Positions 3,001 to 37,000 of a stretch of 64,000 nt of DNA are shown here, piece by piece (positions within the stretch are counted from its first letter, which is position 1; each line of letters begins with the position of its first letter). A model generated the notes under the pieces. That model was not told where the DNA came from. It searched no databases and was given only the letters and a program-made list of their open reading frames with translations. The stretch comes from a virus (taxonomy: Duplodnaviria > Caudoviricetes). The stretch lies in IMG/VR virus record IMGVR_UViG_3300030376_006284, positions 8,658 to 72,657 of that record; one strand, written 5' to 3'. The position numbers and the translations under genes are program-made.

Positions 3001-6000
3001 CTGCTGGTTGATTTGCTAGTGAAGTAGCATTTGCTATTATTTCTAATTTTTGTGATGGAGCAGATGTTCCTATACCAACATTACCAGCTTGCGAACCACC
3101 ACCAACAGTCATACGAATGGCATCATTTGTTACAAAATTTATGTTATTGTAAGCACCACTAGTTTGTGTTCCGTGATTTATTAAATTTGTATCTGAGTAA
3201 GTTCCATATAGGCTGCCACCACCACTTGAAACTTGCTCAAGACTTGCAGTTGATCCCACATTAGTCCCTGATCTTATGGTCATAAAACCACTACCAGTAT
3301 TACCAGTTGGATTATGGTCGATATGGAAACATCTAGTTTGAGTATTAGCTGCACTAGGTACTTCAATCTCTAATGGTGTGTCAGGACTCGCTGTGCCTAT
3401 GCCTACCTTACCATTAGTATCTATTTTAAAAATGTTTGTCCTAGAATTATTAGATCCAGTCTTTAAAGTGAAATCATAAACAGCGACATTTCCATGACCA
3501 TTTGAATCACACCAAATGTTTAGCTGATTTCCTACATCGGTATAATTTCCGCTAATGTAAAGCCCCCCACTAAACGAAGCCCCAGCAGACGTAGTAGAAA
3601 GCTTGAGGGCATTATCGTGATAGAGCTGTACTGCTCCATTTGGTATGGCTATAACACCTTTCTCACTTGTGTTGACTAAAAGCTCTACATTAGCTCCTCC
3701 TGTATTTCTAATTAATAAATGTTTTCCTTGATCTACTGAAGAAATGTAATTATTAAAGCCAGACTCAAAAAGCTCTAAATTACCTGCTGTGGTAATTGTG
3801 GTAGAGGTCATCTTTCCAGTGACAGTGATACCTCCTGCATCTGTGGTGAATTTCTGCGAATTATTGTGCCTAATTTTTACCGCTCCATCTTTATAACAGG
3901 CAATCGCAGTTTCCCCATATACACCGTCAGAGTCATTGAAACCTAGTGCTAAAGTGCTACCTGCCGTAATCTGAAATTCATTCGGCCCTGTGTAAGCAAT
4001 ACGACCCCTCACATTGTCATGCCAGAGGCTCAGATCATTATGAGTTCCTAAAGTTAGCTCCACATGATCTCTAAGGTTTAACCTGTCTTCTGACTGATCC
4101 CATGTTAGATAACGATCTGAAGTATCCCCATAGAAAACGACATCATGTCCTGTTCCATTCTCCCCAACTATAATCCCTTGATTAAAGTGCCATGAGTCAG
4201 TTGAGTTTGACCAGTTGATTGTGTAATCACTAGTACCTTTAAGAGTAATACCACCACCATCAGCAGTTAAATCTGTTGGGGTAGCAACAGAACCTAATTC
4301 AATGTTCTTATCATCAACAGAAACAGTTGTACTGTTTATCGTTGTGGTCGTTCCTTGGACAGTTAAACCTCCCGAAATAATAACATTTCCAGAAAAGGTG
4401 GATGCTAAATTAGCTATAGCTAATCTTTCTACACCCCCTGTATAAAACTTTAAATAGTTAGAACCATTACTTCCTTGGATTCTAGCATTAGCACTACCAA
4501 ACTGCACATAATGAGCAGAGCTAAGTTTTAAATTTGATGAGGCTATTGTTAGGTCTTGATAAAAAGCTGAACCATTTGCATCTAGTATTGCGATAGTACC
4601 AGAACTATTTTGGAAAGTATAACCACTCCCAGTTGTTGAGCTTGTAAAAATATGACTAGACCCACTAACGGCAGGTATGATATCTAAATGTCTAGAGTTT
4701 ACGCTTTCCTCTATCCTTAACCGATCCCCCTTTATGTGTAGCTTATGGTCTGGAGTCGCTGTTCCTATGCCTACTTTGTTATCTTGAGCAGTTCCACCTG
4801 AATTTACCCCAAGCATAATGTCATACCCAGACCCAGCAGCATTATAAATTCTTAAATCATTACCAGCATGGTTGAAAAACCATTTGTTTGCATTATCTGC
4901 TCTTCCTAACCTTAAAGAATGTGTACTCCCATTTGGTGCATCTAAAAGAGTTTCCCCAGCGACTTCAAGTTTGAATGAAGAGCTTCCAGTGCCGATACTT
5001 ACACTACCTCCAAAATAGTTTCTCATATCAGCATTCAACTGATAGACGCCATAAGGAGTATTAGTTTGAGTACCTGAAGTTATATCTCCGATATATAAAC
5101 CATACGTATTAGTTATTGTATGACCTGTGTTTTCAAATGCGGTTAAAGAACCGTGTGCAACAGAATATCCTATCCAATTAGTGATAGTACCGTTTCCAGA
5201 TAATTCTGTATGAGTATTATAATGAGCTACGTTATTTATTTGCCCACTACCTGAAGTGTGGACTCTACTCAAATGGTTTTTTAAGTTAGTTGCCGTTCCT
5301 GTAGAACTAACTGTTGTCATCACTTGTTGATGAAGTGAATTTTGAAAACTACCTCCTGTGCCTGTCAGGGTAAGGTTATTTTGTATTGCATACATTGCGC
5401 TACTTTGCGTACTAGTAGCGGTTGTTGTGGCGGTTGATTTGATTGTGGCTGTTGCTATCGATCCTGATTGTGTTTGAGAATCTAATATATCTAATTTAGC
5501 GGCTGGAGTTGTAGTTCCTATTCCAACATTACCACCCAAAGGGTTTAGTTGCAGATCGTAGTTATTACTATTCACTACAGAATGACTTTGAATCCATCCA
5601 GCGCCACTACTTGAAACGCCCATTTCTATCCCGTAGGATCCTGCGGAGTTTGAAACTAGGAAAGCTCCAGCAGCATTAGAAGCTGTTGCATCATCGTCAG
5701 AATCATAACCAGCCACATGTAAAGTAGTTCTGGGTGTGGCGTGTCCAACTCCCACTCTCCTCAGTTGATCTATAAAGAATGTCTCTACATCCCCTGAAGC
5801 GTTACTTTGTATGAAAGAGTATTTACCGTAGTTTGTGTTGTCCCTTGAGGTGAAATATAAGGTTGTGCCAGCTCTCTGTACTTTGCTGAACTGATTTGTC
5901 CCATCTGAATCCTGTAACCTAATTGTTGCTGTTGTTCCAGAAATGTGTAAGTCATCAGCAGGGGCATCTGTTCCTATACCAACATCCATGTTTAGGATGT

Positions 6001-6541
6001 TGAACTCTTGAGTGCCAGCAGCGTTGTGCTTGAACTCAAAACCATGATTGTTTATATCAGAGTGAAATTCTAAGTTTCCTGTGGAATTATTTCTGCCAAT
6101 GGTAAATGCGTCCGTCTCAGTTCCTCCGCTTACATAGGAAAATCCTATCTGATGAGAAAGGTTGTTTGAAGCATCACTTAAATTTAATAACGAAGAAGGT
6201 GTTGTAGTTCCAATACCTACGTTACCAGAACTAGCAATACGAACTCGCTCGTCAGCGTTAGTCCAAAACCTTAAAGAGTTATCACTGTGTTGATATCTTA
6301 TTCTTCCTATATCAGCGTCAGCTGAGTCTCCAAAAACAATTTGCCCTGCACTAGTTCCATCCCCTGATATTATACATATACCAGAGTTAGCAGGATTAGA
6401 AATTGTAAGGGGTTGGGAAGTACTTAAAGTCGGTATTGTAGTTGAACCACCTGATACGTGTAAAAGTGATGCAGGACTCGCAATATTTATTCCGATATTG
6501 CCTCTTAGATTTTGGATTGCTGGTATAGTTTTGTCTGCCAT
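2..6541 (-). CDS. Giant tail fibre protein, at least 2180 aa, truncated by the window edge (absent from the ORF track)
   Basis: ATG at 6541 (MADKTIPAIQNLRGNIGINIASP...), 1 nt after the stop of the upstream fibre. I read the frame open to position 2 (...KIATDGKVGI). About 18 G[NK]VGIGTxxP..KL[HDE]V repeats; rich in Gly/Ser/Thr/Asn. Confidence 0.85.
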   Translation of the reverse strand, partial: MADKTIPAIQNLRGNIGINIASPASLLHVSGGSTTIPTLSTSQPLTISNPANSGICIISGDGTSAGQIVFGDSADADIGRIRYQHSDNSLRFWTNADERVRIASSGNVGIGTTTPSSLLNLSDASNNLSHQIGFSYVSGGTETDAFTIGRNNSTGNLEFHSDINNHGFEFKHNAAGTQEFNILNMDVGIGTDAPADDLHISGTTATIRLQDSDGTNQFSKVQRAGTTLYFTSRDNTNYGKYSFIQSNASGDVETFFIDQLRRVGVGHATPRTTLHVAGYDSDDDATASNAAGAFLVSNSAGSYGIEMGVSSSGAGWIQSHSVVNSNNYDLQLNPLGGNVGIGTTTPAAKLDILDSQTQSGSIATATIKSTATTTATSTQSSAMYAIQNNLTLTGTGGSFQNSLHQQVMTTVSSTGTATNLKNHLSRVHTSGSGQINNVAHYNTHTELSGNGTITNWIGYSVAHGSLTAFENTGHTITNTYGLYIGDITSGTQTNTPYGVYQLNADMRNYFGGSVSIGTGSSSFKLEVAGETLLDAPNGSTHSLRLGRADNANKWFFNHAGNDLRIYNAAGSGYDIMLGVNSGGTAQDNKVGIGTATPDHKLHIKGDRLRIEESVNSRHLDIIPAVSGSSHIFTSSTTGSGYTFQNSSGTIAILDANGSAFYQDLTIASSNLKLSSAHYVQFGSANARIQGSNGSNYLKFYTGGVERLAIANLASTFSGNVIISGGLTVQGTTTTINSTTVSVDDKNIELGSVATPTDLTADGGGITLKGTSDYTINWSNSTDSWHFNQGIIVGENGTGHDVVFYGDTSDRYLTWDQSEDRLNLRDHVELTLGTHNDLSLWHDNVRGRIAYTGPNEFQITAGSTLALGFNDSDGVYGETAIACYKDGAVKIRHNNSQKFTTDAGGITVTGKMTSTTITTAGNLELFESGFNNYISSVDQGKHLLIRNTGGANVELLVNTSEKGVIAIPNGAVQLYHDNALKLSTTSAGASFSGGLYISGNYTDVGNQLNIWCDSNGHGNVAVYDFTLKTGSNNSRTNIFKIDTNGKVGIGTASPDTPLEIEVPSAANTQTRCFHIDHNPTGNTGSGFMTIRSGTNVGSTASLEQVSSGGGSLYGTYSDTNLINHGTQTSGAYNNINFVTNDAIRMTVGGGSQAGNVGIGTSAPSQKLEIIANATSLANQPAEPLFVHNDGNNIDGRVFLSVKHDRISTAQALGAGLKMSAGAVTSGTASYFDSLILLEGAGAGSDTIHSAPKAIKFYVDNHDTAAGDGNDYYQLGDLALTIKEDGNLSASGVVLFNDNKGINFGNSNAKIYGSSSDGIKFNAGNAVAMHLTQTGNLAIGPSSPAAKLHIENTVAAGSDNFALHLHNPTNASDSRVGMMFRVNNNTGSNIDGAAIQAYNNGYDGQAHLGLGHVLNGTFSETLRVDTANRVGIGVTNPDCRLEVKGAGTGSTAALRVRNNNDGELFAIRDDGIVTVPYNYFYVNSSQGAYVQNSLRVRGSLHNDQGTLQIGNSNGTAFDGNVGIGTSSPLSRLDIAQDDGASHTDFGYDGLTLSAHASASEPSIITFRSANEDGNLANSAKIGSVTTGTGSSYNGNLVFSTRAGASIAERMRVQHDGKVGIGTATPSRTLHVVDSAGPTIKFERGTASNLEFTFGSTNASIASAGEIQFRANGGTTNKFIINNSQIQSNAKLLVVNNSGTEVVGSNDTSSLTGMLVKTSGGTSQALFGVEGSGTGYLSGTIARAAVLASTASGTALQLGSAGVIRATIKHDGNVGIGTTSPTDKLHVYGSVRGDMKLEGNFTAGQTDVAKFGLAYLPRGGDHNNRNIALIGAYNTTTDSTSGGELRFHTRATNSSLQERVRIQQDGKIGINTTSPDLTLHVNGTVRVDSGSGVASRKVRSSYFSSGQSLTLESGSSGQVILTTGSNNQLKADSGGFVQLSHVGSTTGGKFLVRTYSGNDYLNVFSSEHSSGSLCIGYGAAGKYNASGFVSTYDNFAGHKTLLKINHNGFNVLTTSTNQTDTVGADLMMTNRFTVQNDKAYFGTGNVGIGTTSPVVKLDVHGDFMVTNTTPRLILKESGSSKDISLKVQTNGRLDILNDNQVNTLATVLQDGKVGIGTTSPTNTLTVQSASGTSSFKTGDGTRFFRVYQDSTNISLAADGSANLDFYVGGSQRLKIATDGKVGI

Positions 6542-6542
6542 T

Positions 6543-9500
6543 TTATGTTACGGATAATGCGTCTCCCATGATGTGATAACACAGTCTTCCTGATATTGAT
6601 TCGGTAGTATCGGAGACTGCTTGGAATTGTATTGTAAAATTGTTCGGTGAACCTCCTGCTGTAGAAGGGTCAACTATCTTAGCTGCAATAGAATCGGAAG
6701 CTAAGTTATCTTGTTGTGTTAGTATAATTCCTGGCTCATTGTACCCTGTATCTCCTGCATTCTGTATAAGAAATTCACCGACATAAGCCAATGAGCTATG
6801 ATTACCCCAATTACCTGTTATGAATACTTTAACGTGGCAAGCGGTATGGTGTGCTAAACTAACTGTTAGTCCTGTCGTAAAGCTGTGAGTTATTGTGTAA
6901 GCTTTACTGCCTATTAAATGTCCGTTAGTTGATGAGTAGCCGACTCTAGCACCGCCTCTAACATCTAACTCCTCTGCTGGTGACGTTAGTCCTATTCCTA
7001 CTTTATCTTGAGATGCGTCTACATATAGTGTGTCTGTATCAACATAGAAATCGCTGCTTGAATTAAATCCTCCAATAGTCGCATTACCCTTTCTGAAATA
7101 AATAGCCCGACTAGATTCACTGTTTAAAAATACATCCCCAGAAGAACTCTGCAATAAAGCGTAACCACTTGTAGAAGCTCTTTGTAAATGAGCAAATCCT
7201 GCATGATCACTAAATCCCATGTGTCCAACTTGCGATCTACCTATTTGTGCGGATACATCTGTGTTTGTTCCTACTTCAAGGACTTGAGTTGGTGTAATCC
7301 ATGCGCTATTACCTACACTTAATTTTGTATAAACTCTTGTAGTGTTTGATATATCTACTGTACTCTGTAGATCAGTATGTCCTGTAATTTTTCCTGTTCC
7401 TGCTACATGTAGTTTTGCACTAGGACTTGTATCCCCTATGCCTACGTTACCATCACTAAGAATCCTTATAGCCTCTGTAGTTGCAGTGCTATTCCCTGTA
7501 AAGAAAGCTAAGTGAGTTGCAGCAGATGACCCTCCATCTACGGCATATAATCCTGCAAATTCCTCTCCAGTGTTACCCATTGATATACCACCGATAAGGT
7601 TGCCATTAGCATTGTGTGCATTTGTGAAGCTGAGCTTTGCCCCAATCGAAGTAGTAGCAATGGTTTTAGTGATGGCTGTAACAGGAGTTCCCTGTTGGCT
7701 TATTGCTGCTGCACTAAGATGGAGAGGGCTTGATGGGGCAGTATTAATCCCTAAGTACCTTGTAGTGTCTACTATTTGAAGAGCTATTGCACCATTAGAT
7801 TGCAGTCCATCTTTTATGACGAAATCATTACTAGCATGTTGACCCATGAACCAATTATGTCCAACTTTGTACCCTTGATATTGTTGATTTGTTGAACTAG
7901 TAATAAACCAAGCCCCTGCCCCCGTTGATTCACATTTAATTACTACATCATTTTCACTACCGCTAACATGAAGTTTTTCTGCTGGGGTTGCTGTTCCTAT
8001 ACCAACTCTTGGCCCATCACTCACTGTCCCATGGACTGTCATTCCAAGCCTCTGTACCCCAGATGTGGACTTAACATAGAACTTTAAGTCAGTGCGTAAT
8101 GCACTTGCATTGGAATCTAAATCTATCTTCCCCCAGTTCTGTTGAGCGGCATTATAGTCTTGGGCAAACTGAATCCTGTTTAAAGTTGTATTTGCTACAT
8201 TATTCGACCCATCTCTATGTAGGGTTAGGATGTTGGCTGCATCAGTAGTCGAAACTTGGAGTTTTGTTGCAGGGCTTGTAGTACCTATGCCTACGTTACC
8301 ACCAGATTTTAAAACTAAAGTGTTTTCATTAGAAGTCCCACCTAAAACTAATCCGTGTCCATTTAAATCATAAATATCTGGGTTAGTAAATGAACTTGAT
8401 GATCTAGTAAATCCAGCAGCATAAAAATTGTTTCCTGCACTTGTATCTTGGATAAATCTAGCGGCAACAATATTACCATCTACATCTAACTTTTGAGCTG
8501 GACTAACTGTTCCTATGCCTACATTGCCTCCGTTCTTTATGTAGAAAACAGAAGTGCCATCATCTTGAAAATCTATTACTGGCTGTACTCCTTTTTGATT
8601 AACAATAACAGCAGGGCCAGTTCCGTCATTCGTTACTAAAAGCTGTTCAGTGGTGCTGACATCTGTGTCTATTATAGTGAACGTGCCTGTAGTAGAAATG
8701 TCTCCTTGTACTGTAAGATCTCCTGCCAGAACAACAGGCCCAACAGGTATATCTATACGCCCATCATTCCTTATGCTAAACAAGCTAGTGTTTGATGAAT
8801 TTCTAACCAAGAACCCGTATGCCAAACTATCGCTTGTTCCGCCTTTTACTTCTAATCTTGTATTTGTGGCAGCAGCTCCTACCCCTAAATTACCTCCTGC
8901 TATATAGCTATTACCAGTAGCATTAATTGATACTGTGTTTACACCCGATGAATTGTTAATTGTTAACTGACCATGATCACTTGATACTCCAAGGTTAATA
9001 ACCTGTATTCCAGAACTATTGAGTCTTGAAATTGTTCCTTTGACTGAAAGCAAATGAGGAACCGTAGTCGTGCCAATACCTACGTTACCATTTTCCTCAA
9101 TCCGCATCCTTTCATTTTGAATAGTCTGAAATCTAAGTCTTCCAGTTCCACCAGTGCTATAGGTTGAGTTGATGTAAGCACCGTCTGCATCAGCCCCTGC
9201 TAAAAATCTATTATTACGTACAGAGTCACTGTCAAATAAAGTTAAAGTCGCACCTGCACCTGTACTTGTCCTAATGTTTCCGTTAACTTCTAATTTTGCT
9301 ACGGGGCTATTAGTCCCTATACCTACGTTTCCGCCAGTCTGGATCGTAAACCTGTCACCCGTTGAGCCATGTTCCCTAATTGTGAAATCAGAGTTAACTC
9401 CATTATTAGTAACTTTGAAGGCATACCCCCTATTTGGGTAACTAGCGTTCTTAACACCTAAATATAAACCATCACTACCACTGTCCGTAAATATAGCAGC

Positions 9501-12164
9501 CGTGCCAGTTACAGATTGGTTTCCATTAGAGCCTACTGTGTACTTATCTACTTGTAGCTTTGACCCACCAACATCTGTAGTAAGCATTGAGGTTCCTATA
9601 CCCACCTTGCCCCCTCCAGTTGTCATGAATATATTCCCTCCCCCTGCTGCCATGAATATATTATGGGTGCTTAGAGAATTCAGATATAATGCCCCATGAG
9701 AATTTGCAATTGATGACTTACCTTCAATATGTCGGACACTCATGTATCCATTAAGAGAACCACCTACACTTAATATATTATTGCTTGATGAAGAGTTTCT
9801 GCTTTCAACAGTGACAAGACCACCAGCAGCTATACTTAATGCAGTTACTCCTGTAGTTCTAACCTTGATACCACTAGCTGTACCTGTACCAGCAGCTTCA
9901 GTTCCTATCTCCAAGAAGCTAGAAGCATGCTTAAAGAAAGATCGCTCATAATTATTATCATCTGTATAGGTTTCGTATAACTCAATCTTTGTGGCTGTTG
10001 TTTTACCATTAAGAACTAAAGTTCCTGTAGAAGAGAGTGTAGCAGTAGGAATACTATTACTCGGAGTACCTGCTGTATTTAAGAACTCCCACCCTTTATT
10101 AGCAGTGCCAGTTGTGGCTTTCCATGTTCCACCATAGTTTCGGAACTGTCCTGTTGTAGCACTATAAACATTTCCTGTAGAAAAAATTCCACCAGAGGTG
10201 AAATAAGCTCTCTGTACCCCATCAACAGCAATATTAAACGTTGATGAAGTTGCGTAGATACCCGTGTTGGTTTCTGAAGTGAAGGCTAACGCAGGTGCAG
10301 ATACACTGCCGTCAGGAATTCTTAATCCTTTGGCAAAGACATTCTTTTCAATCGCTCCATTTAATTGAATGTATGTTGTCGCAGTACCACTTCCATTGTC
10401 AGCCGATAAGAAAATACTTTGGTCTGCAATCGTTTGTCTTATATGTAAAGCCCCAGTGCCTGTTTGATTTATGTAACTCGCTGATCCATCATGTTTGATT
10501 TGGAGGTCAGCGTCACTTCCTAACTGAAGGACTTTGGTATCATTGAGCTTTAGGTTGCCTGTCATCGTCCCTCCTGCGAGGGGAAGGATTCCTGCTTCCG
10601 CTAAAGTTTTGTTATGCCAAGCACCTGAATTATAAACAATTAACTCTCCGTCACCGACAGATGACAACATAACGTCATCTAAAAGAGAAAGATGTTTTGT
10701 GTCTGTCCAAGGGACGTTTACAAACATCTCCTCTGATGAGAGTTCTACTGGATAATTCTTACCATTTTCAGTATACCCTATTTTAACTCCGCCTCTCGCA
10801 CCACTAGTAGCTAGAGGTAAAACATAATTATTAGCATCAGTAGCTCCTGTATACCCAAGGTTAGCTAAAGTAAGTGTTCTTTTAGTTATACCAGTTACAT
10901 GTCCTGATGTATCAGATGTAAAAGAAGCTAAAACTTCGTTAGAAGCTAACGTAAGTCCTCTTTGAGTATGTGATGGATGTACATAATTATTAGCATCAGT
11001 AGCTCCAGTATATCCAAGATTAGCTAAAGTAAGTGTTCTTTTAGTTATACCAGTTACATGTCCAGATGTATCAGATGTAAAAGAAGCTAAAACTTCGTTA
11101 GAAGCTAACGTAAGCCCTCTTTGAGTGTGTGTTGGGTGAACGTACTTGTTAGCATCAGGATCTCCAGTATACCCAAGGTTAGCTAAAGTAAGTGTTCTCT
11201 TTGTTATACCAGTTACATGTCCAGATGTATCAGATGTAAAAGAAGCTAAAACTTCGTTAGAAGCTAACGTAAGACCTCTTTGAGTGTGCGTTGGGTGTAC
11301 ATAACTATTAGAATTAGATAGTACAAAAGCTGTAGTTGCTAACTGTGTAGTGTTAGTACCTGCACTAGCTGTAGGTGCAGTTGGTGTTCCTGTAAGAGCA
11401 GGACTCGCTAAAGGTGCTTTAAGGGCTATTGAATTGGTTAAAGTAGCTGCTAAAGTAGGATTACTTCCTAAAGATGTCTGAATTTCTACAAGAGTATCTA
11501 GAGCAGGGCCAGCTCCACCAATAAGATTATTTATCGCTGTGCCTACAAACTCTGTAGACGCAATACGTGTACTATTATTACCTGCTACTTGGGTAGGAGC
11601 TGTCGGATTCCCTGTAAAAACAGGGTTAGTAAACATCGTGCCCTTAGACTCATTAGTAACATTTCCTAAGTTGACTTGAGTAGCGGTGACACTATGAGGA
11701 TTACTAGTATCGCTAGTATGAGAAGTAAGTGATGAAGTAGAAGCAATTCCTGCTTCAGACAAAGTTTGGTTTAACCATTTAGAAGAGGAGGTATCATATT
11801 GTATAATCTCATTATCTCCCAGAGATGTGAAGTTAACATCATCCATCTCAGCTAGAGTATTCTCTAGCGTAATTGCACTATTAACAAACGCAGTAGTCGC
11901 TATCTGAGTCGTATTAGTTCCCGCAGAAGCTGTTGGTGCCGTAGGAGTGCCTGTAAATATTGGGCTCTCTTTAGGGGCTAGTTTGCTCTCTATTGTTAAA
12001 CTTGCTGTAGATGGGGCAACTGTTACCGCAACTAAGCTAGATGTGCTTTCAGGAGATGTTAAAGTGCCTCCTGTCGCAGAAGTTACACTTAATGTGCTTG
12101 CTGCGGGTGGTGTGACGGTAACCGTATTGACCGTCTGTGAAACAGTAGCTTCTTCATTCGCCAT
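6543..12164 (-). CDS. Long tail fibre protein (1873 aa)
   Basis: N-terminal P[IV]FTGTPTAPT..AGTNTTQIATTAFV fibre repeats (x3), a 3x53-aa tandem repeat, and about 10 GNVGIGT-type repeats. Confidence 0.85.
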   Translation of the reverse strand: MANEEATVSQTVNTVTVTPPAASTLSVTSATGGTLTSPESTSSLVAVTVAPSTASLTIESKLAPKESPIFTGTPTAPTASAGTNTTQIATTAFVNSAITLENTLAEMDDVNFTSLGDNEIIQYDTSSSKWLNQTLSEAGIASTSSLTSHTSDTSNPHSVTATQVNLGNVTNESKGTMFTNPVFTGNPTAPTQVAGNNSTRIASTEFVGTAINNLIGGAGPALDTLVEIQTSLGSNPTLAATLTNSIALKAPLASPALTGTPTAPTASAGTNTTQLATTAFVLSNSNSYVHPTHTQRGLTLASNEVLASFTSDTSGHVTGITKRTLTLANLGYTGDPDANKYVHPTHTQRGLTLASNEVLASFTSDTSGHVTGITKRTLTLANLGYTGATDANNYVHPSHTQRGLTLASNEVLASFTSDTSGHVTGITKRTLTLANLGYTGATDANNYVLPLATSGARGGVKIGYTENGKNYPVELSSEEMFVNVPWTDTKHLSLLDDVMLSSVGDGELIVYNSGAWHNKTLAEAGILPLAGGTMTGNLKLNDTKVLQLGSDADLQIKHDGSASYINQTGTGALHIRQTIADQSIFLSADNGSGTATTYIQLNGAIEKNVFAKGLRIPDGSVSAPALAFTSETNTGIYATSSTFNIAVDGVQRAYFTSGGIFSTGNVYSATTGQFRNYGGTWKATTGTANKGWEFLNTAGTPSNSIPTATLSSTGTLVLNGKTTATKIELYETYTDDNNYERSFFKHASSFLEIGTEAAGTGTASGIKVRTTGVTALSIAAGGLVTVESRNSSSSNNILSVGGSLNGYMSVRHIEGKSSIANSHGALYLNSLSTHNIFMAAGGGNIFMTTGGGKVGIGTSMLTTDVGGSKLQVDKYTVGSNGNQSVTGTAAIFTDSGSDGLYLGVKNASYPNRGYAFKVTNNGVNSDFTIREHGSTGDRFTIQTGGNVGIGTNSPVAKLEVNGNIRTSTGAGATLTLFDSDSVRNNRFLAGADADGAYINSTYSTGGTGRLRFQTIQNERMRIEENGNVGIGTTTVPHLLSVKGTISRLNSSGIQVINLGVSSDHGQLTINNSSGVNTVSINATGNSYIAGGNLGVGAAATNTRLEVKGGTSDSLAYGFLVRNSSNTSLFSIRNDGRIDIPVGPVVLAGDLTVQGDISTTGTFTIIDTDVSTTEQLLVTNDGTGPAVIVNQKGVQPVIDFQDDGTSVFYIKNGGNVGIGTVSPAQKLDVDGNIVAARFIQDTSAGNNFYAAGFTRSSSSFTNPDIYDLNGHGLVLGGTSNENTLVLKSGGNVGIGTTSPATKLQVSTTDAANILTLHRDGSNNVANTTLNRIQFAQDYNAAQQNWGKIDLDSNASALRTDLKFYVKSTSGVQRLGMTVHGTVSDGPRVGIGTATPAEKLHVSGSENDVVIKCESTGAGAWFITSSTNQQYQGYKVGHNWFMGQHASNDFVIKDGLQSNGAIALQIVDTTRYLGINTAPSSPLHLSAAAISQQGTPVTAITKTIATTSIGAKLSFTNAHNANGNLIGGISMGNTGEEFAGLYAVDGGSSAATHLAFFTGNSTATTEAIRILSDGNVGIGDTSPSAKLHVAGTGKITGHTDLQSTVDISNTTRVYTKLSVGNSAWITPTQVLEVGTNTDVSAQIGRSQVGHMGFSDHAGFAHLQRASTSGYALLQSSSGDVFLNSESSRAIYFRKGNATIGGFNSSSDFYVDTDTLYVDASQDKVGIGLTSPAEELDVRGGARVGYSSTNGHLIGSKAYTITHSFTTGLTVSLAHHTACHVKVFITGNWGNHSSLAYVGEFLIQNAGDTGYNEPGIILTQQDNLASDSIAAKIVDPSTAGGSPNNFTIQFQAVSDTTESISGRLCYHIMGDALSVT
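10822..11304 (-). repeat. Three near-identical 159-bp (53-aa) in-frame tandem repeats in the tail fibre
   Basis: YVHPTHTQRGLTLASNEVLASFTSDTSGHVTGITKRTLTLANLGYTG..DAN; units begin at 10822, 10981 and 11140; differences are mostly synonymous. Confidence 0.95.
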
Positions 12165-19088: not shown

Positions 19089-20480
19089 TTAAGCAGCAGG
19101 TGTAGTGCTTGTACGCTTAAACAATATGACGTAACCGAAGTTAGTCTTAATTGGCTTAGACGCAGAAGCCATAATACCTCTGAAGAAACCAATGGTTCCA
19201 TCTGGGTTTTTAACTACGTCAGGAATGTTAGTCCACTTGAAGTCACCCTTATAGTTAACAGGGTTAAATGACATTCCACTTACGTTAGTTATAGGTGCAG
19301 GAATCAAGGACTCCATCACGTTATCAACAAGTATGAAAGCTGCCTCATAGGCAGCAGTATCATAATCACCATTAACAGTAATCTTGTCATTAGTCTGATC
19401 ATGCTTATAAGGCTGTACCGCTACAAGCTTATCACTGTTAATCCCGCTGAAACGTGGTGCAAGGTCATCTATCAAGTGATAGAAACCTCTAAAGCTCTTC
19501 TCAACTCCTAATGGAGCAATGAGGTCAGAAACTTTAGCGTTATTGTAACGCACGTCATCACGGAATCCAGCTTCAGTCATCAACTGATATGATGCTTCAG
19601 ATGAGCAAACAATAGAGAATACAGGGCGACCATTTTCACGGCCGTATGCATTAGATCCTGCACCCGCTCTTACAAGCTTGAAGTAAATATCATCAAGAAG
19701 CTTGTTAGATATGTTTGCTGTAACATCAAGAACATTGTCCTCAGCTCCATCTCCAGAAGCGGCTCCGCCAGCGGTTCCCTCGGATGTGTCGTCCACATCA
19801 AGGTCTGTTAATGCAACACCTTCTTTACCACCAACGGTGACAGAAGAAGCAGTCTTAGCGTAAACGATGTTATCACACATCTTACCATACTCATCACGAT
19901 AGCGGCTTTCCCATGAGTTACGTGTTGACTCTTTAAGAAGATCCATGATTGCACGGAGTTGTTCAGTTCTGTGTGCAGTATAACGAAGTTCCTCTACGTT
20001 AATACGAGGAGATTCAATGATTGAACGCTCAAGGCTGTAAGTTTTAAGAGACTTAGTGAAGTCAATTAAGTTAACATCTCCTGATGCAGCTCCTGATCCA
20101 TAATGAAAATCATCAGCTACACTACCACCAAGCACGTTTCCTGTCTGGTCTAGCTGACCTGCACTCATACCATTAACAGAAGTGCCGTGGGTAGTTCCCA
20201 TTGCTCTCCAGTTTGATCCGACTCCCACTGAGTCCGTCCCCGCAAGGTTTTTACCTTCTGCTTGTAAAGGAAGTGCACGATCATAAATGAGTGTGCTTAG
20301 TTGATATCCCATTCCCTCAGGAAATGTAGATTGTTTAATAAGGTCTATCCACGGTGAAGTGTGGAGAGTTGCCTTGTGAATATCTGCGCCAATTCTGTTG
20401 GCTTCTTGAGTCAATACAGCATCAATTGCTGCTGCTGCATCAGTCTCAAATGTGTTTGGTAGTGCAAAGTCTACGGCCAT
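19089..20480 (-). CDS. Major capsid protein (463 aa)
   Basis: Size, position downstream of portal and scaffold, own promoter and structured leader, downstream hairpin. Confidence 0.75.
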   Translation of the reverse strand: MAVDFALPNTFETDAAAAIDAVLTQEANRIGADIHKATLHTSPWIDLIKQSTFPEGMGYQLSTLIYDRALPLQAEGKNLAGTDSVGVGSNWRAMGTTHGTSVNGMSAGQLDQTGNVLGGSVADDFHYGSGAASGDVNLIDFTKSLKTYSLERSIIESPRINVEELRYTAHRTEQLRAIMDLLKESTRNSWESRYRDEYGKMCDNIVYAKTASSVTVGGKEGVALTDLDVDDTSEGTAGGAASGDGAEDNVLDVTANISNKLLDDIYFKLVRAGAGSNAYGRENGRPVFSIVCSSEASYQLMTEAGFRDDVRYNNAKVSDLIAPLGVEKSFRGFYHLIDDLAPRFSGINSDKLVAVQPYKHDQTNDKITVNGDYDTAAYEAAFILVDNVMESLIPAPITNVSGMSFNPVNYKGDFKWTNIPDVVKNPDGTIGFFRGIMASASKPIKTNFGYVILFKRTSTTPAA

Positions 20481-20564
20481 TTTATTTGTTTCTAAATTTA
20501 AGTTAAGTTAAGTTAAGGCAGACCACTCCATATCGCTGGATTGTGGTCTATTTCAAAGTTAATT

Positions 20565-20659
20565 GAATCTTGACTAGAACTATTTAAGGCTAGAGCAACC
20601 GCAAAATTCTTAGTGCGTTTTAGGTCTGAACTAATTAATGGCTAGAGCAACCGACCTTA
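20565..20659 (-). ncRNA. Candidate tandem cis-regulatory RNA motif in the capsid 5' UTR
   Basis: Two copies of CGGUUGCUCUAGCC-N-UAGUUC, each enclosed by a different complementary stem. Confidence 0.55.
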
Positions 20660-20668
20660 GACATCAGA

Positions 20669-20697
20669 AACTTAACCTTAAATATTAAGGTATGCAA
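20669..20697 (-). promoter_or_regulatory. Sigma70-like promoter of the capsid gene with a palindromic spacer
   Basis: TTGCAT-17-TAAGTT; the spacer is ACCTTAA-TAT-TTAAGGT. Confidence 0.55.
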
Positions 20698-20711
20698 ACT
20701 ACTATTTTAAA

Positions 20712-20727
20712 TGTTCCACATGGAACA
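20712..20727. promoter_or_regulatory. parS-like palindrome
   Basis: TGTTCCACATGGAACA matches the bacterial parS consensus TGTTNCACGTGNAACA at 15/16 positions; intergenic. Confidence 0.6.
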
Positions 20728-20732
20728 CCAAC

Positions 20733-20933
20733 CTACGAAGAAGCGAGTGCGCTTTCGACAGCCTGTTGGAAGGAAGGGTCTTTACCTTCCATGTCTAGTT
20801 CGTCCTCATGGACTAACCCTAGTTCTTTAAAAATAAGATGTTCTTCATGAGAATCAGCCATCATGCTTTTACCTGTTTTAGGCTCAAACATTAAATGAGG
20901 CTTGAAATCTTCTTTTCCTTTTCCTTTTTTCAT
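20733..20933 (-). CDS. Small hypothetical phage protein
   Basis: KPHLMFEPKTGK...HEEHL; tightly coupled to its neighbours. Confidence 0.6.
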   Translation of the reverse strand: MKKGKGKEDFKPHLMFEPKTGKSMMADSHEEHLIFKELGLVHEDELDMEGKDPSFQQAVESALASS

Positions 20934-31005: not shown

Positions 31006-34000
31006 TTAATCAAGACTCCTAAGGAGTGATCCACCCATACTATCTTTGTAGGCATCTATAACTCTTTGTCTTCTTATGTCTAAGTTTCTGTCTGACAAGT
31101 AATCCTTTATACCTTGTCCTTCGTTTTGGAAGTCTTCAGTGGTTATGTATCCCTTGGCTACTATATCTACTAAACTTTTTCTAAGTCTAGCTCCTTTCAT
31201 TATATCTTTAACAGCTGTTTCACCTAAAGCTTTTGAGTAAACTAAGTAAGCAGCACGAGCATCTTTCAAAGCTGCTTCCATCGCTTGGTATTCCCTGCTA
31301 ATAATTTTTTGAACTTGTTTATTTTGATAACCTTTTTCTTCGTTAAGGAGTACATTCTTTCTGGAGAGTTCACCATACAACCCGCCTTGGATTTCTTTGA
31401 AGCGTCTCCTTGCTAATTGTTCTAACTGAAGTGCGTGGAATTTAACAGGAGTTATATGTCTAAAGAACTCCCCTTCAGGACTGTAGTATGGAGAGCCCAT
31501 GAATGTTCTAGCATCCTCTCCTGTTTTGTAGTCGGCATCTCCTGTTGCTTTAATTATTTTTCTAGCGGCAGTTAATGAAGGAGGCTCTAAACCTTTTTCA
31601 TAAATGTACTTTAACTTCAACTGAAGAGCATCGGGTGAATACTCAGTGTAGATTTCTCTGCCTGTGTTAGCGTCTTCATTAAATACGAACACGTCCATCA
31701 TTGCGGAGAACATAATTTGCTCGTTTAAGAATGTGTTTAATAAGTAGTCTGTAGTCAAAGCTTCTATTGCTTTTTTAGGTTCACCCCTTACTGCACTCTC
31801 AAAACCCCGCATTAGGGAATCTAAGATTGGAGACATAGGATGGACATAACTGAAACTCATGGAGTTTAGTTGCCCGTTTTGTCTGACATAAAGTAAGTTT
31901 TGGATTCTTGACCACTTAGGACTGCCTTCTCTAAATTCTCTTTCGTCCTCGTCGTTTAGGTTAGTTACAAACAACTGAACAAGTTTTGGAATTGCCATAT
32001 ACAAAACAAAGTTTGTTCCTATAAATCCGTTGGCTCTTCGTTTACCTCTTGCCTGTATGATAGGGTTCTCACTTTTCTGTTCGGCTCTTGCCTGACGTGG
32101 GATATTAGTCATCAGTCTTGGGTTTTCACCTATGAACCTAGCAAACGGAGCTGTAATAACTCTGACCACAGGGAACTCTGCAAAGAACTTTACGATAGGA
32201 GCGCTTTGACTTCTAGACTGTTGCGTTTTCAAAATGATATCACCAGCAAGGGCATCAACCTCTGCATTAGTCATGTCTTTGTACATGTCATTTCTATTGG
32301 CCTCTATTGAGTCTTGTCTAGCGGCTAAGATAGTTTGCTTTTCATATTCAAAAGCAACAATTTTCATAGCGTTATCTAATGCTAAAACCAAAGCTTGCGC
32401 TTTCTTGGAAGCGATACTTCCAGTACCCGCTATCATGCCAGCGGCCTTTAACAAAGTCTTTTCTTGTACACTTCCTTCTGGGAACAACTTGCTTTTAAAC
32501 TTTTCTGCTCTGGATGGGTCTTGTAAGTTATCAATTTCTAATTGAATATCTTCGGCATCACGTTCTCTTGATATGGAAAAGCCTTTACTTCCCCCTAACA
32601 AATCTCGCAACAACGCATAGTTAACACCTCCATCTAAAACTCCTAAAGTAGAAAGCTGTGCGTAATAACCCATGCTACCCCTATCGGCAGAATCGTTTTG
32701 AGTATAGCTTCTCTTATTAAATACTCCTGAAGGGAACACTTGCCTTTTAATTTCTGAACCAAGCTGTGGGATATAACCTGCTAACTCACTTGCAGGTAAA
32801 CCATTTTGACTTAAGAATAAGAAAGAACCTAAAACCTGTCTCTCATAGAAGGGTACTGAACCCGCTGTTTTAGATACAAGACTCAATCCAGATATCTGAG
32901 CTAATATATTCTCTGCTTGTTCAGCAAAGTTTAAATCTTTTGCTCTTTCAGGATTAAGTATAGACCTTATGTAACTAGCTACCTCAGGATGCGCTAACAA
33001 GTTACCTTTTTCCTCAACAGAACCATCTTCTGTTTTAACTCTGTAATTAATTAGAGGATCAGTGTTTGGTGGTTTTCTTGTTGGTGCTTCTTTAGCAGTG
33101 CCATCAGGATTAAACTTAACTTTAAAAGCTCCTAATTTTGTGGTTCCCTCAGAACCCGCAACTTCAGCAACATCGCTATCCGAAGATGTAGTTTTGCTGA
33201 CCTCTTCATAATCTTTATATGGATTAGGTCTGTCAAACTTCTTAGCTCTAGCGGTTTCCTCAGCTATCTTTTCTTGAGTTACTAACCACCCTGCTTTTAT
33301 TCCTTCACTAACAATACGATCTTTAAGAGCTAGTTTAGAAGCCAACCCTCCAAGATTTATTACTGTTCTGTATAAGATATCTAAGTTAGATTCTTCTTTA
33401 AACTCTCCAAGAGCAGCTCTCATTCCCTCAGGTAAATTGCCCCTCCTCTTAAAACTATCTACACCGTAGTCACCTTCGTAACTTTTTAAGAACTCTTCCA
33501 ATGCTTGTTGAGCTAAGTCATCGTTAGACTCTAGCTCTGCCTGAGCTTCGATGTTTGCCATCTCCTTTGTAAGGCCCCCTTCTTTTATAAGGTGCTCAAC
33601 TCTTTGAGCTTTCCAATGTGTTGCAAAGTAATCTAAGGCTAAGTCTCTTGCATCTTTGTGTACCTCTTTATTTAAGAACTCATTAGCCCACTCGCCTTTC
33701 TTGTAGGTAAATATTCTGTATTGTTTTGTTAAATACAATTGGAGACCAGCACCTATTCTAAGTTTAAGATCAGGGGCCGTGAATGAAATTATGTCAGCTA
33801 CCTCAGAAGATAAAGTGTCAGCTAACTTTCTTAAAGAAACTATATGGTCTGCCAATTCTGGAGAATCATTTCTTATTATTGCTATAGATTGGTTTTGCTT
33901 TCTTTTAGCTGCTTTAATAGCTTCTGTTCTCGCTTTAGATTTAGCAGTTTCTCGATTATTAAAGGCATCTAAGAATGCTTTTTCTTTTTCTTCAGCAGTT

Positions 34001-37000
34001 AACTCTTCATTCGTGTTTACACCATCCAGTTCGTTAAGATAATCTTCTTGAATCTGTGCAAGTATTTCTTCGGGAGCATTTAAATCAGTTGATCCAGTAG
34101 CATCCATGATAACCTGAGAAGGTATCTCTTTACCTGCTTGCACATAAACAGAATTAAGTAAGTCATCTGTTGTGTTTTTGTAAGCTAAAACTTTATTTCC
34201 AATAGTAGATTTAAAGAAGTTAGATCTTTCTATGTATCTTCTTAACTTTCTTTCGTTAGGCCCAAAGAAAAGACTCCAATACTTACCCCCTTTTTTCCAT
34301 TCAGGGTGTGCCTTCGATCTGTACAATAAACGCTGTAAGTATTTAACTCCCCTTGAATCCTCCATTACAGGTATATCTGCTCTCAATATGTCAGTGAGCA
34401 TATTCCATGATTCAGTAGCTTCTAAATACTCAGGAGCTTCCGTAGGATCTTTCGTGTGGATCTTAGTTCTTTGGTCGTCAGGGAAAAATTTATCTTTTAT
34501 AATTTGGTGTTCTTTAAGTAAATCTTCGTAACGCAAACCTGTACTTTCGATCTGATCTTTCCATACTCTTTCTGATCCACTTGGTGACCCCAGTAGTCCT
34601 AAAGAAGACTCAAGATCGGTGATAGTTTTGTGGTATTTGTAGAGAGGATGACGCTGACCCAAGATAGTTTCCATCCTGTGGAAGATAGCGTTTCCTATAC
34701 GACCTTCTTGTATGTCTTCGTCTGCACTGTGTGGTACTCTTAAAGATTCTACAACAAAAGGATGAGCTTCTTTAAGATCAGACATTAACATGAATCGAAC
34801 CTGATCTTTTTCAATCGAAACAAGATCATATGAAAAAGGTACGTGGTTGTCGTTTTCTGACTCTGCGTTTATTCTTTCTTCTTCTAAGTGTGCTTCTAAT
34901 CTAAGTTTGGCTTGTTCATATTGTTCTTTCTTAACTTTGTTAGAAGGTTTCTCCAGAATAGAGTAACCGTCTTCAATAGCTTCAGAAGAAATATATAAAC
35001 CTCCTACTTGTTTACCTGCAAGGGATGACCAATTATTTTCTGGCTGTGCACTGATCCGTGTACGCTGTATAGGTGGATCGTTATTTACTTCGTTTGCTTT
35101 GAAGGTTCTTCCGACAATCGCTTCAAGAACTGTAATACCTCTGTTGGTTTCTTGGACTTCGTCTGGTGAAACGCTTTTTCCAAAATTTTGTTCAACGATT
35201 TCCCCTCGGCTCCGTACTTCTCTGCCACGTACATTGTTAGGTTCAGCGAACGTGTTAACGAATTTGTTTGCTTGTAGCTCTGCGTTAAGAAATTTAGTGC
35301 TTCCTTTAACAAACTTTTTTCTGAGTGTTTTAATGCTTTCATATTTATTTATAATTAAGTCTTGTATTAACCTATTACTCTCTTCAAAGATAGGATTCAT
35401 TTGAGAGTGATAAGCCCTAACCGCTGAAAAAGGATAAGTAAATCCTGCTCCCTCGTTTCTTTGTCCTACGTGATTAACTTCATGTAAAATTATATCAGTC
35501 AAAAAGGCAGCTAGTCCTTCTACTCCGACATCTTCATTTAACTCTCCGTCTTCAGTAAAGTTCAATGAACCGTATACAGGATTAACTAAAATTACACGAG
35601 GGTTTATGCCAGTGTTTACTCCTCCCCAGTTTTTAGAAAGAGCAGATCCATAATGGTAGCTAACCCCTTTGAAGTTAGGATCATTCTCAGCATCCGCTTT
35701 TGCAAAATTTCTCAAAGCTAACCCAACATCATCATTAGAACTTAAAGAATTATCATTCTCATAAAAATCATATTTGTATACACCTAAGAATTGATCTGCA
35801 ATGTTATTAACAATACTTGCGAAATCGTTCATGAGTTCTGTTTCAGATGGATCGAGATCGAAGTCTAAATTGTTGTAAACAATGGGGACGCTTGGTCTCG
35901 CCTCATTACCATCAACGCCACTTATAATAGAAAATTCTTCCTTGAATTTTTGTTTAAAATATTCCCTTCCATATTTCCTAACAACATTGTGTACCTCTTC
36001 TTCTACAGGATGGTTATCGTCAGAAGATGTTTTCCCACTCCATTGGGGAGAAAATTTTTCTCTAGTATTACCAAAAGGATAATCCATGCTATCCGCAGGT
36101 ACCCTTGGTTTTATATTTACTTTTATATTATATGGAACACGTTGTTTTTGTACGGAAGGAGTGCCCGTTACAAATTGAAAGAGACCATTTGAATAGTATT
36201 CAATTGATTTATTGCTAATACTTTGACCGATAGGAGAATCACCTTCTGTCAGAAAAGGTATATTAGCACCTTCTTTATCAAGATCACCTATTTCGTATGC
36301 GAAAATATCAATGTCTGCTTGAAGAGTACGCACACTTGTTTTTTCATAACCATTGTTTTCTATATTATCTAAGGAAAGCGTGTTACGCATTGAGCGTTCA
36401 TTAATTAATAGAAGCTGTCTTTTTTCGTCGAGTATATTTTTATGAAATGAAGGAGCACTTAAGTAAACACTTTCTCCGTCTATTTCCTTAGGGAACTTCA
36501 TCCAAATTTGTGTGCCTGACGGAGCATCTACTTTCCGTGAAGAAATTTCAAATGGCTTTTTGCTTATTAAAGTTTTATTATCCACTTTAACAGTTGACTC
36601 AACTCCGTCCCTAACAGTCTTAACAAATATCTCTTGGGCTGCACGAAGCATTGAAATTTTAGCAAGGCCAAATCCTCCAGAAGGATTATCAGATTCTTTA
36701 TAACTTCCTCCCAAAGTAAAGTAAGCAGATTTAATTATTTCGGGGGACATACCTATTCCATTATCTCTGATGTATACCCACTGTTTATCATCAACAACTT
36801 TTCCTTTTTTAAGATCGTTTACGATAGTTTCTAAAAGTTCTGGGGGAGCAGATACCTCTTCAGTCCAGCTCGCTGGTTGAATCCTCTCCCCCCATTTCCA
36901 AGGCTTTTGATCAGGGTCTGGAACTTTTATACTGTCTCCTTGATTCCATAGCCCGTACTCAATTTGAGGTTGAGAATTAGATTCTATCCAAATTTGTGGG

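Follow-up and report, generated by a model that had tools for sequence, protein, structure and literature searches.

A predicted tandem pseudoknot element in the capsid-message leader of uncultured aquatic phages

Leader elements that are repeated or pseudoknotted and are bound by the product of their own gene include the thrS operator and the leaders of ribosomal-protein messages, which mimic the tRNA or the rRNA site of the protein. Autogenous or assembly-linked control by a protein usually shows itself in the restriction of an element to one gene family, as in the ribosomal-protein leaders and in T4 gene 32. Small H-type pseudoknots also occur as aptamers, preQ1-I among them, in which the strand order is stem 1, a short loop, stem 2, the return of stem 1, an A-rich loop and the return of stem 2, and the put units of phage HK022 are plain stem-loops without a pseudoknot that lie in early operons and act in cis. 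The operator of gene 32 in phages T4 and RB69, as passages of one paper describe it, begins with a 5′ pseudoknot and continues with a little-structured stretch of more than 40 nt, in which the start site and short repeats rich in A and U are found (PMC535899). Fremin et al. (2023; PMC10690425) derived 10,006 candidate structured RNAs from viral contigs, and passages of that paper place five of these candidates upstream of the capsid family PHA00201.

The element that we describe here precedes the gene for a major capsid protein and is a new RNA family within this known general kind, the pseudoknotted mRNA-leader elements. It lies in a 64,000-nt stretch of viral DNA (hereafter, the window) that corresponds to bases 8658-72657 of a 72,657-bp virus record rated complete by CheckV. 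With the thrS operator and the ribosomal-protein leaders it has in common that structured, repeated or knotted elements stand in the leader of one gene. Like the T4 gene 32 operator, as far as the description in PMC535899 goes, it places a 5′ pseudoknot ahead of an unstructured, repeat-bearing start region (the repeats here being UUAAC/UUAAA), and like that operator it is tied to a single gene. It differs in having two knots, each in a stem of its own, and other fixed bases; in serving a capsid gene (HK97-like fold) rather than that of a single-strand DNA-binding protein, with a repressor that is only putative here; and in the greater distance to the start, about 85-135 nt in the sub-clade of the window. 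The candidates of Fremin et al. come from the same source, IMG/VR, and are the same kind of object, and our motif may be among the 10,006; five of theirs lie upstream of family PHA00201 (PMC10690425), whereas the capsid protein here has no family match.

Both units were read directly from the minus strand and are given here as RNA. Unit 1 (20657-20622) reads AGGUC-GGUUGCUCUAGCC-AUUAAU-UAGUUCA-GACCU and unit 2 (20609-20565) reads GAAUUUUGC-GGUUGCUCUAGCC-UUAAA-UAGUUCUA-GUCAAGAUUC, their limits being set by this reading together with comparison. The two units have in common the core GGUUGCUCUAGCC, an A/U linker and UAGUUC, each within an enclosing stem of its own, and their identity extends over 14 nt (20653-20640 and 20601-20588). 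These letters, the 14-nt identity and a third hairpin at 20549-20520 are as the first-pass annotation had given them. In the window, as in the full 72,657-bp record, the exact 13-mer core is present only twice, looser matches to it (up to three mismatches) are not in excess (13 versus 11.8 in shuffles), and a covariance model run over the whole record gave a significant score for units 1 and 2 only. Rfam 15 yielded no match in the whole window at the gathering score and none in 20440-20760 at E ≤ 10 with permissive filters, in keeping with the earlier statement that the motif resembled no familiar riboswitch or ribozyme. A tRNA/tmRNA scan found nothing. The exact 13-mer was absent as text from about 8.4 million papers and preprints, and literature searches by topic yielded no description of the element.

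By comparison among relatives, each unit is predicted to fold as a variable stem, P1, around an H-type pseudoknot, which consists of a 3-bp stem, P2, and of three bases of the P2 loop paired to the triplet before UUCUA. P2 has the form GGY/RCC, and its loop is a fixed GCU followed by the three knot-forming bases; their partner triplet sits just before the fixed UUC(U)A tail, and an A/U-rich linker bridges the two. The 13-mer had earlier been taken for a plain 5-bp hairpin; in the light of covariation, a 3-bp stem whose loop is knotted with UAG is the better reading. On the minus strand, P1 of unit 1 pairs 20657-20653 with 20626-20622 and P2 pairs 20652-20650 with 20642-20640 around the loop UGCU (20649-20646), while CUA (20645-20643) forms the pseudoknot with UAG (20633-20631), the linker spans 20639-20634 and the tail UUCA 20630-20627. 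The same parts of unit 2, on the same strand, are P1 (20609-20601 with 20574-20565, including one bulge), P2 (20600-20598 with 20590-20588, loop UGCU at 20597-20594), the pseudoknot of CUA (20593-20591) with UAG (20582-20580), the linker (20587-20583) and the tail UUCUA (20579-20575). A small hairpin, UUCAA...UUGAA, at 20552-20567 (minus strand) has its UUC in common with the 3′ strand of P1 of unit 2, and the two pairings may be mutually exclusive.

Enclosing stems that are unlike in sequence and still pair were part of the earlier reading, and this claim held when the 5′ and 3′ flanks of each unit were scored as a duplex and compared with flanks swapped between unrelated loci (69 distinct units 1 and 67 distinct units 2). 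Mean P1 energies were −9.08 kcal/mol for own flanks versus −3.63 kcal/mol for swapped flanks in unit 1, where 50 of the 69 units did better than at least 95% of swaps, and −8.04 versus −4.18 kcal/mol in unit 2, where 25 of the 67 did so. The flanks of the opposite strand paired worse (−7.83 for unit 1 and −7.04 for unit 2).

The 13-mer is almost invariant in the marine set of units, and the rare changes in it carry information on P2 and the pseudoknot. We placed 82 marine matches with a covariance model that holds the 3-bp P2 alone, so that the alignment was not fitted to the knot. P2 and pseudoknot cells were paired in 98.7% of cases versus 94.0% in shuffles (0 of 500 shuffles reached 98.7%), and sliding the partner left 6-43% paired. 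The variable pseudoknot pair, 24-38, was AU in 61 rows, GC in 11, CG in 1, UA in 1 and another combination in 1; one P2 pair was UG in 64 rows, CG in 4, UA in 4 and GC in 1, and another was GC in 72, CG in 3 and AU in 1. The motif is fixed as RNA of the capsid sense by this U·G pair, present in 64 of 77 rows, since the complementary strand would have an A·C mismatch in its place. The earlier remark that G-U pairs favor the minus strand is thus upheld, both by this pair and by the poorer pairing of the opposite strand.

A more distant, lake-type clade, the relatives of locus L023, carries one unit with a hairpin inserted in the linker, and we aligned 19 of its sequences with plain MAFFT. Their pseudoknot was 100% paired, with changes on both sides at all three pairs (CG/UA, CG/UA/UG and GC/AU), and P2 was 94.7% paired, one of its pairs being CG in 9 sequences and UA in 8. 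The linker hairpin, whose cap is a GNRA loop (often GAAA or GCAA), covaried at five of five pairs; P1 was 63% paired in the fixed register used. Pseudoknot triplets over all sets include CUA/UAG, CUG/CAG, CCG/CGG, CCA/UGG, UCG/CGA, UUA/UGA, CAC/GUG, CUC/GAG, CUU/AAG and UUGC/GCAA. What hardly changes is the GG...CC of P2, the loop GCU and the UUC(N)A after the knot, and about 20 bases are the same in phages that have only about 52% identity in the capsid protein and widely different G+C contents. Covariation in homologues, named beforehand as the check for this structure, was accordingly found in P1, P2 and the pseudoknot. Marine and lake-type units were counted separately, since the combined alignment (A5) was out of register and supplied neither counts nor a second model, and covariance model R1 was too sequence-specific for the lake-type units. 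A search by loose regular expression, with pseudoknot pairing as a requirement, was circular and matched sites in the loci by chance; it was dropped for the model-made and MAFFT alignments.

Nested folding energies of the single units were ordinary (−6.8 and −7.6 kcal/mol; z −0.52 and −0.54), as was that of the whole leader (z −1.45 sense, −1.35 antisense), and the case for the fold therefore rests on comparison and not on thermodynamics. With nested folds this weak, a partner may be needed to hold the units.

The gene downstream of the units is a 463-aa ORF (19089-20480, minus strand, ATG at 20480-20478) that matched no Pfam or PHROG family and had no relative by tblastn in 50,697 cultured-phage records. 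An AlphaFold2 model built with 38 homologues reached modest confidence (pLDDT 57.7, pTM 0.56). Foldseek returned no row for it at E ≤ 0.001, its top rows being phage capsids, and in VIA-align the N4 phage capsid scored best (Z 9.8; rmsd 5.4 Å, 213 residues) of 22 chains with Z ≥ 8, all entries listed being phage head structures. On this model-based evidence the ORF is accepted as a predicted HK97-fold major capsid protein. A profile search of the ORF against the PDB produced one sugar-kinase row at E 0.54, which we set aside as chance. Among the genes of the window are those for a family A DNA polymerase, a helicase, an exonuclease, a primase-like protein and the large terminase, a content that fits a tailed phage. 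Blastn of the leader and of the region against cultured phages left the leader unmatched; in the region, the small neighboring ORFs alone matched Roseobacter, Pelagibacter and Prochlorococcus phages. The window also holds very large ORFs, all on the minus strand, at 31006-49263 (6,085 aa), 2-6541 (more than 2,180 aa) and 6543-12164 (1,873 aa), the last of which has no Pfam match.

The tandem motif is strictly tied to this capsid gene. A protein-anchored search, with the capsid protein as query and blind to the RNA, collected 38 viral loci at 52-82% protein identity, and 36 of the 38 have the tandem motif upstream of the capsid gene; the exceptions are L023, with a diverged single unit, and L018, with a different leader. 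A capsid-profile scan of metagenomes recovered at least 488 relatives, and among the best 80 kept, all 62 loci with at least 330 nt of upstream DNA had two units before the capsid homologue. We also scanned IMG/VR for the pattern and obtained 87 stretches; in these and in the capsid-anchored loci, a capsid homologue follows unit 2 wherever there is enough downstream DNA, the seven loci without a capsid match ending within about 410 nt. Each of six genomes that are 98-100% complete gave exactly two significant matches to model R1, both in the capsid leader, and in none of the six did the model find the motif at any other gene. Two-copy matches in genome collections were contigs binned into metagenome-assembled genomes, with the capsid gene present. 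The carriers are a large, abundant and wholly uncultured group of aquatic phages, from ocean and lake.

Single-copy matches in bacterial genomes (a Methylophaga locus, Wolbachia and others) were rejected: they lacked a capsid gene and mostly also a flanking stem, and their count was not above chance (about 35). Six of them, L131, L135, L137, L139, L141 and L142, from Methylophaga and a related metagenome-assembled genome, are one orthologous locus with a single-copy 13-mer, AUAA and UAGUUC but no flanking stem and no capsid gene, which we take for an accidental match that was inherited. Motif-bearing contigs had been binned with metagenome-assembled genomes of Opitutae, Verrucomicrobiales, Blastopirellula and Acidimicrobiaceae, at best a faint hint at hosts. 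Lake-type leaders (L223-L250) have a second conserved block about 130-60 nt before the ATG, made of UUGAAGCU, GGCCYAUGCGCC and the hairpin GUCGCC-YGCUUCW-GCGAC, which may be a degenerate second unit or a different domain. The relatives of L018 (L268-L274), from which the motif is absent, have a conserved leader of a different kind, with a GUCCUGCCAAUGGGAC-type hairpin and a block CUGCGCUA, possibly a replacement element.

Upstream of the units, on the minus strand, stand a −35-like hexamer, TTGCAT (20692-20697, read directly), and, 17 nt after it, a −10-like hexamer, TAAGTT (20669-20674), which is weak in agreeing with the consensus at three of six positions; the consensus promoter scan missed the hexamers of the window. 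A promoter pattern was found in 70 of 124 distinct leaders of relatives, with TTGACA (39) and TTGCAT (19) as the main −35 sequences, and the distance from the end of the −10 to the GG of the core is 14-21 nt in 65 of these 70. The likely 5′ end of the capsid mRNA is a G at 20662, 7 nt after the −10, a spacing with which the end of RNA-library contigs agrees. The leader is covered by RNA-library contigs from three studies, which stop at 20662 or 11 nt inside: record 4 of X1 spans 20466-20662, record 18 of X4 spans 20457-20662 before continuing in unlike letters, and record 8 of X2, of which X3 is a duplicate, ends at 20651. In X1, X2 and X4 the contigs run across both units and on into the beginning of the coding sequence. 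These data are contigs and not reads, with DNA carry-over possible, so that a start at 20662 is a weak hint, and the gap in RNA-contig coverage at 20702-20775 carries no evidential weight. About 60 nt before unit 1 in L020, L027, L029 and L037, the terminator-like hairpin of the upstream block has the TTGACA −35 of the capsid promoter in its loop; in the window a weaker hairpin, at about 20728-20711, lies between a 66-aa ORF and the promoter.

These positions bear on where the motif stands in the message. The first-pass annotation had unit 1 begin at the +1, which needs correction, as its stem begins 5 nt after the likely +1 given by the contig end at 20662. A transcription start downstream of the motif, which it had named as the finding that would make the motif a DNA site, is not what the RNA contigs indicate: they end upstream of the motif, at 20662, a weak hint. 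Its broader description, of a tandem structured RNA that has the sense of the capsid gene and stands at the 5′ end of its message, is upheld. At the other end of the gene, 8 nt after the capsid stop codon, lies a strong hairpin (19081-19054, minus strand; dG −20 kcal/mol, z −5.6) that could be a 3′ stabilizer or a terminator; a G+C-rich hairpin follows the capsid stop in all 16 relatives inspected (L004-L039), with a U-run in some. With its promoter, structured leader, ORF and 3′ hairpin, the capsid gene looks like an expression unit of its own.

G makes up only 13% of the 45 nt that precede the AUG, and AAC, UAAC and UUAAC are enriched in this G-poor stretch, with 2.18 AAC per leader versus 0.97 in shuffles (102 distinct, mutually related leaders). 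The window has three UUAAC and one UUAAA in a G-poor tract before the start codon (20497-20516, minus strand) with no predicted structure. The UUAAC/UAAC start repeats are common to the marine, the lake-type and even the pseudoknot-less L268 clade, and one extra 5-nt repeat is present in one RNA contig and in L003/L033. The start was said to lack a Shine-Dalgarno sequence, and it does, but this is nothing special to the capsid gene, most genes of the phage being likewise without one: only 3 of 32 ORFs checked reached −5 kcal/mol or better. The missing Shine-Dalgarno sequence is thus genome-wide and lends no support to capsid-specific control; the host probably initiates translation largely without it.

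The third hairpin (20520-20549, minus strand; AGACCAC...GUGGUCU with inner UCCA/UGGA) is present and stable, as had been claimed (dG −15.7, z −5.0), but it is kept in a sub-clade only, is absent from many relatives and has few compensatory changes. Its five outer pairs are kept mostly via one-sided changes, the sequence of its 3′ arm, GGAGNGGUCU, being conserved more than compensation is, and RNAalifold gave a weak consensus of −2 kcal/mol with compensatory change in two of five pairs. It is terminator-like in a few relatives only, and many leaders have no structure after unit 2.

By analogy with the T4 gene 32 operator we lean, short of even confidence, toward the view that the units are an operator for a trans-acting protein that controls translation of the capsid message or its lifetime. 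A protein partner is favored because the RNA is tied to one gene family and because the layout resembles that of gene 32. The fixed bases would then be the recognition surface for the trans-acting factor, most likely a phage-made protein linked to head assembly, either the capsid protein itself or a partner. As in the gene 32 operator, the 5′ knot would nucleate binding, the unstructured, repeat-bearing start region lying after it. Binding at both units would control how long the message lasts, initiation at the G-poor, UUAAC-repeat start some 100 nt farther on, or both of these, and capsid output would be matched to assembly. Several observations count against this operator: the near-invariant core is no less suited to a universal ligand, or to a host machine, than to a phage protein that co-evolves with it, the short leaders of L020 and L039 have no structure linking the units to a start codon 50-70 nt away, and the window's own promoter is weak by consensus. 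Repression of its own message is not known for the capsid protein of any tailed DNA phage, and searches of the literature yielded no case.

The fit of the core to a universal ligand leads to an alternative that we consider unlikely, a tandem riboswitch. Each knot unit would then be the aptamer of some ion or small molecule that very different hosts share, and the pair would time or tune capsid synthesis. Fixed bases cluster around a small H-type pseudoknot in which every helix covaries, the same core recurs in AT-rich marine and GC-rich lake-type phages, the tandem layout would suit such a sensor, and the weak nested folds without ligand and the tolerance for a GNRA-capped hairpin in the linker point the same way. 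Size and strand order are those of the smallest pseudoknot aptamers. With preQ1-I the units share the strand order, the H-type knot with an A/U-rich linker, very short helices (3 bp each here), fixed junction bases and a size of about 35-45 nt. The H-type knot and the A-rich third loop thus indicate a shared topology and not membership: the preQ1-I model of Rfam gave no match at E ≤ 10, and the stem P1 and the UUC(U)A tail are additions here, with no evident expression platform. No queuosine genes were found among 10 proteins compared with Pfam and 10 with PHROGs (9 common to both), and the context is the capsid gene only. Against a riboswitch stand the restriction to one gene family, unlike known riboswitch classes, the lack of a clade-wide terminator or start-site-sequestering platform, the lack of an Rfam match even at E 10, and a gene context that suggests no ligand.

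A host machine as the target is also conceivable, and we give similarly little credence to a stabilizer or translation enhancer that acts independently of any phage factor, with the 5′ units blocking 5′-end-dependent decay or recruiting the host ribosome (for example via S1) to the start without a Shine-Dalgarno sequence, and the 3′ hairpin guarding the other end. The units lie within a few nucleotides of the likely 5′ end, the very stable hairpin after the stop codon recurs in each of the relatives inspected (16/16), the capsid is the protein needed in highest copy number, and the invariance of the sequence would be explained if the target were a conserved host machine. End protection, however, needs only a stem and not about 20 fixed bases with a knot; 5 nt are unpaired at the 5′ end in the window, a plain hairpin stands ahead of the unit in lake-type phages, and no other phage gene has the motif although most are also without a Shine-Dalgarno sequence.

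The conserved host enzyme could instead be RNA polymerase, and the nascent units would then bind it and make it resistant to termination over roughly 19 kb of structural genes, as put RNA does in HK022. Resemblance to put RNA is one of position, two adjacent structured units directly after a promoter, while the units here are pseudoknotted and those of put are plain stem-loops. A role of this kind would fit two structured units that directly follow a host-type promoter at the head of a long same-strand structural block, with a highly conserved target, and in several relatives the upstream transcription unit ends in a terminator-like hairpin at or inside the promoter. We consider it very improbable in view of the strong hairpin that directly follows the capsid gene and that in some relatives is a complete terminator, U-run included, which suggests a mostly single-gene message.

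Tandem self-cleaving ribozymes that process the 5′ end of the capsid message are a still slighter prospect: small ribozymes, which are common in phage DNA, are typically small knotted motifs with some 20 fixed bases, and cleavage could in principle have produced the contig ends near 20662 and 20651, but contigs of three studies span both units uncut (partial cleavage lying beyond what contigs can exclude), the end at 20662 fits the promoter spacing exactly, and no Rfam ribozyme family matched at E 10. Scarcely credible is a DNA-level site, a binding site of a regulator or an extruded hairpin: two identical 13-mers beside a promoter could be operator sites, but the flanking stems are unlike in sequence and still pair, the pseudoknot covaries, the U·G pair of P2 in 64 of 77 rows becomes an A·C mismatch on the other strand, and the likely start of the RNA is upstream of the units.

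Tailed phages make no other protein as heavily as that of the capsid, and little is known of how its output is set after transcription. The putative operator, or whichever of these roles the units have, gives the capsid message of an aquatic phage group a mark in the form of a sharply defined fold, with about 20 fixed bases and three covarying helices, that at about 45 nt is small enough for direct biochemistry and structure work. The fold is a handle for fishing its partner, be it a phage protein, a host machine or a small molecule, and it could be used as a sequence tag for the phage group in metagenomes and metatranscriptomes. If the units were riboswitches, they would be a new phage-borne class, a tandem H-type knot sensor of a universal metabolite, ion or signaling nucleotide, and abundant phages of oceans and lakes would time capsid production to the state of the infected cell.
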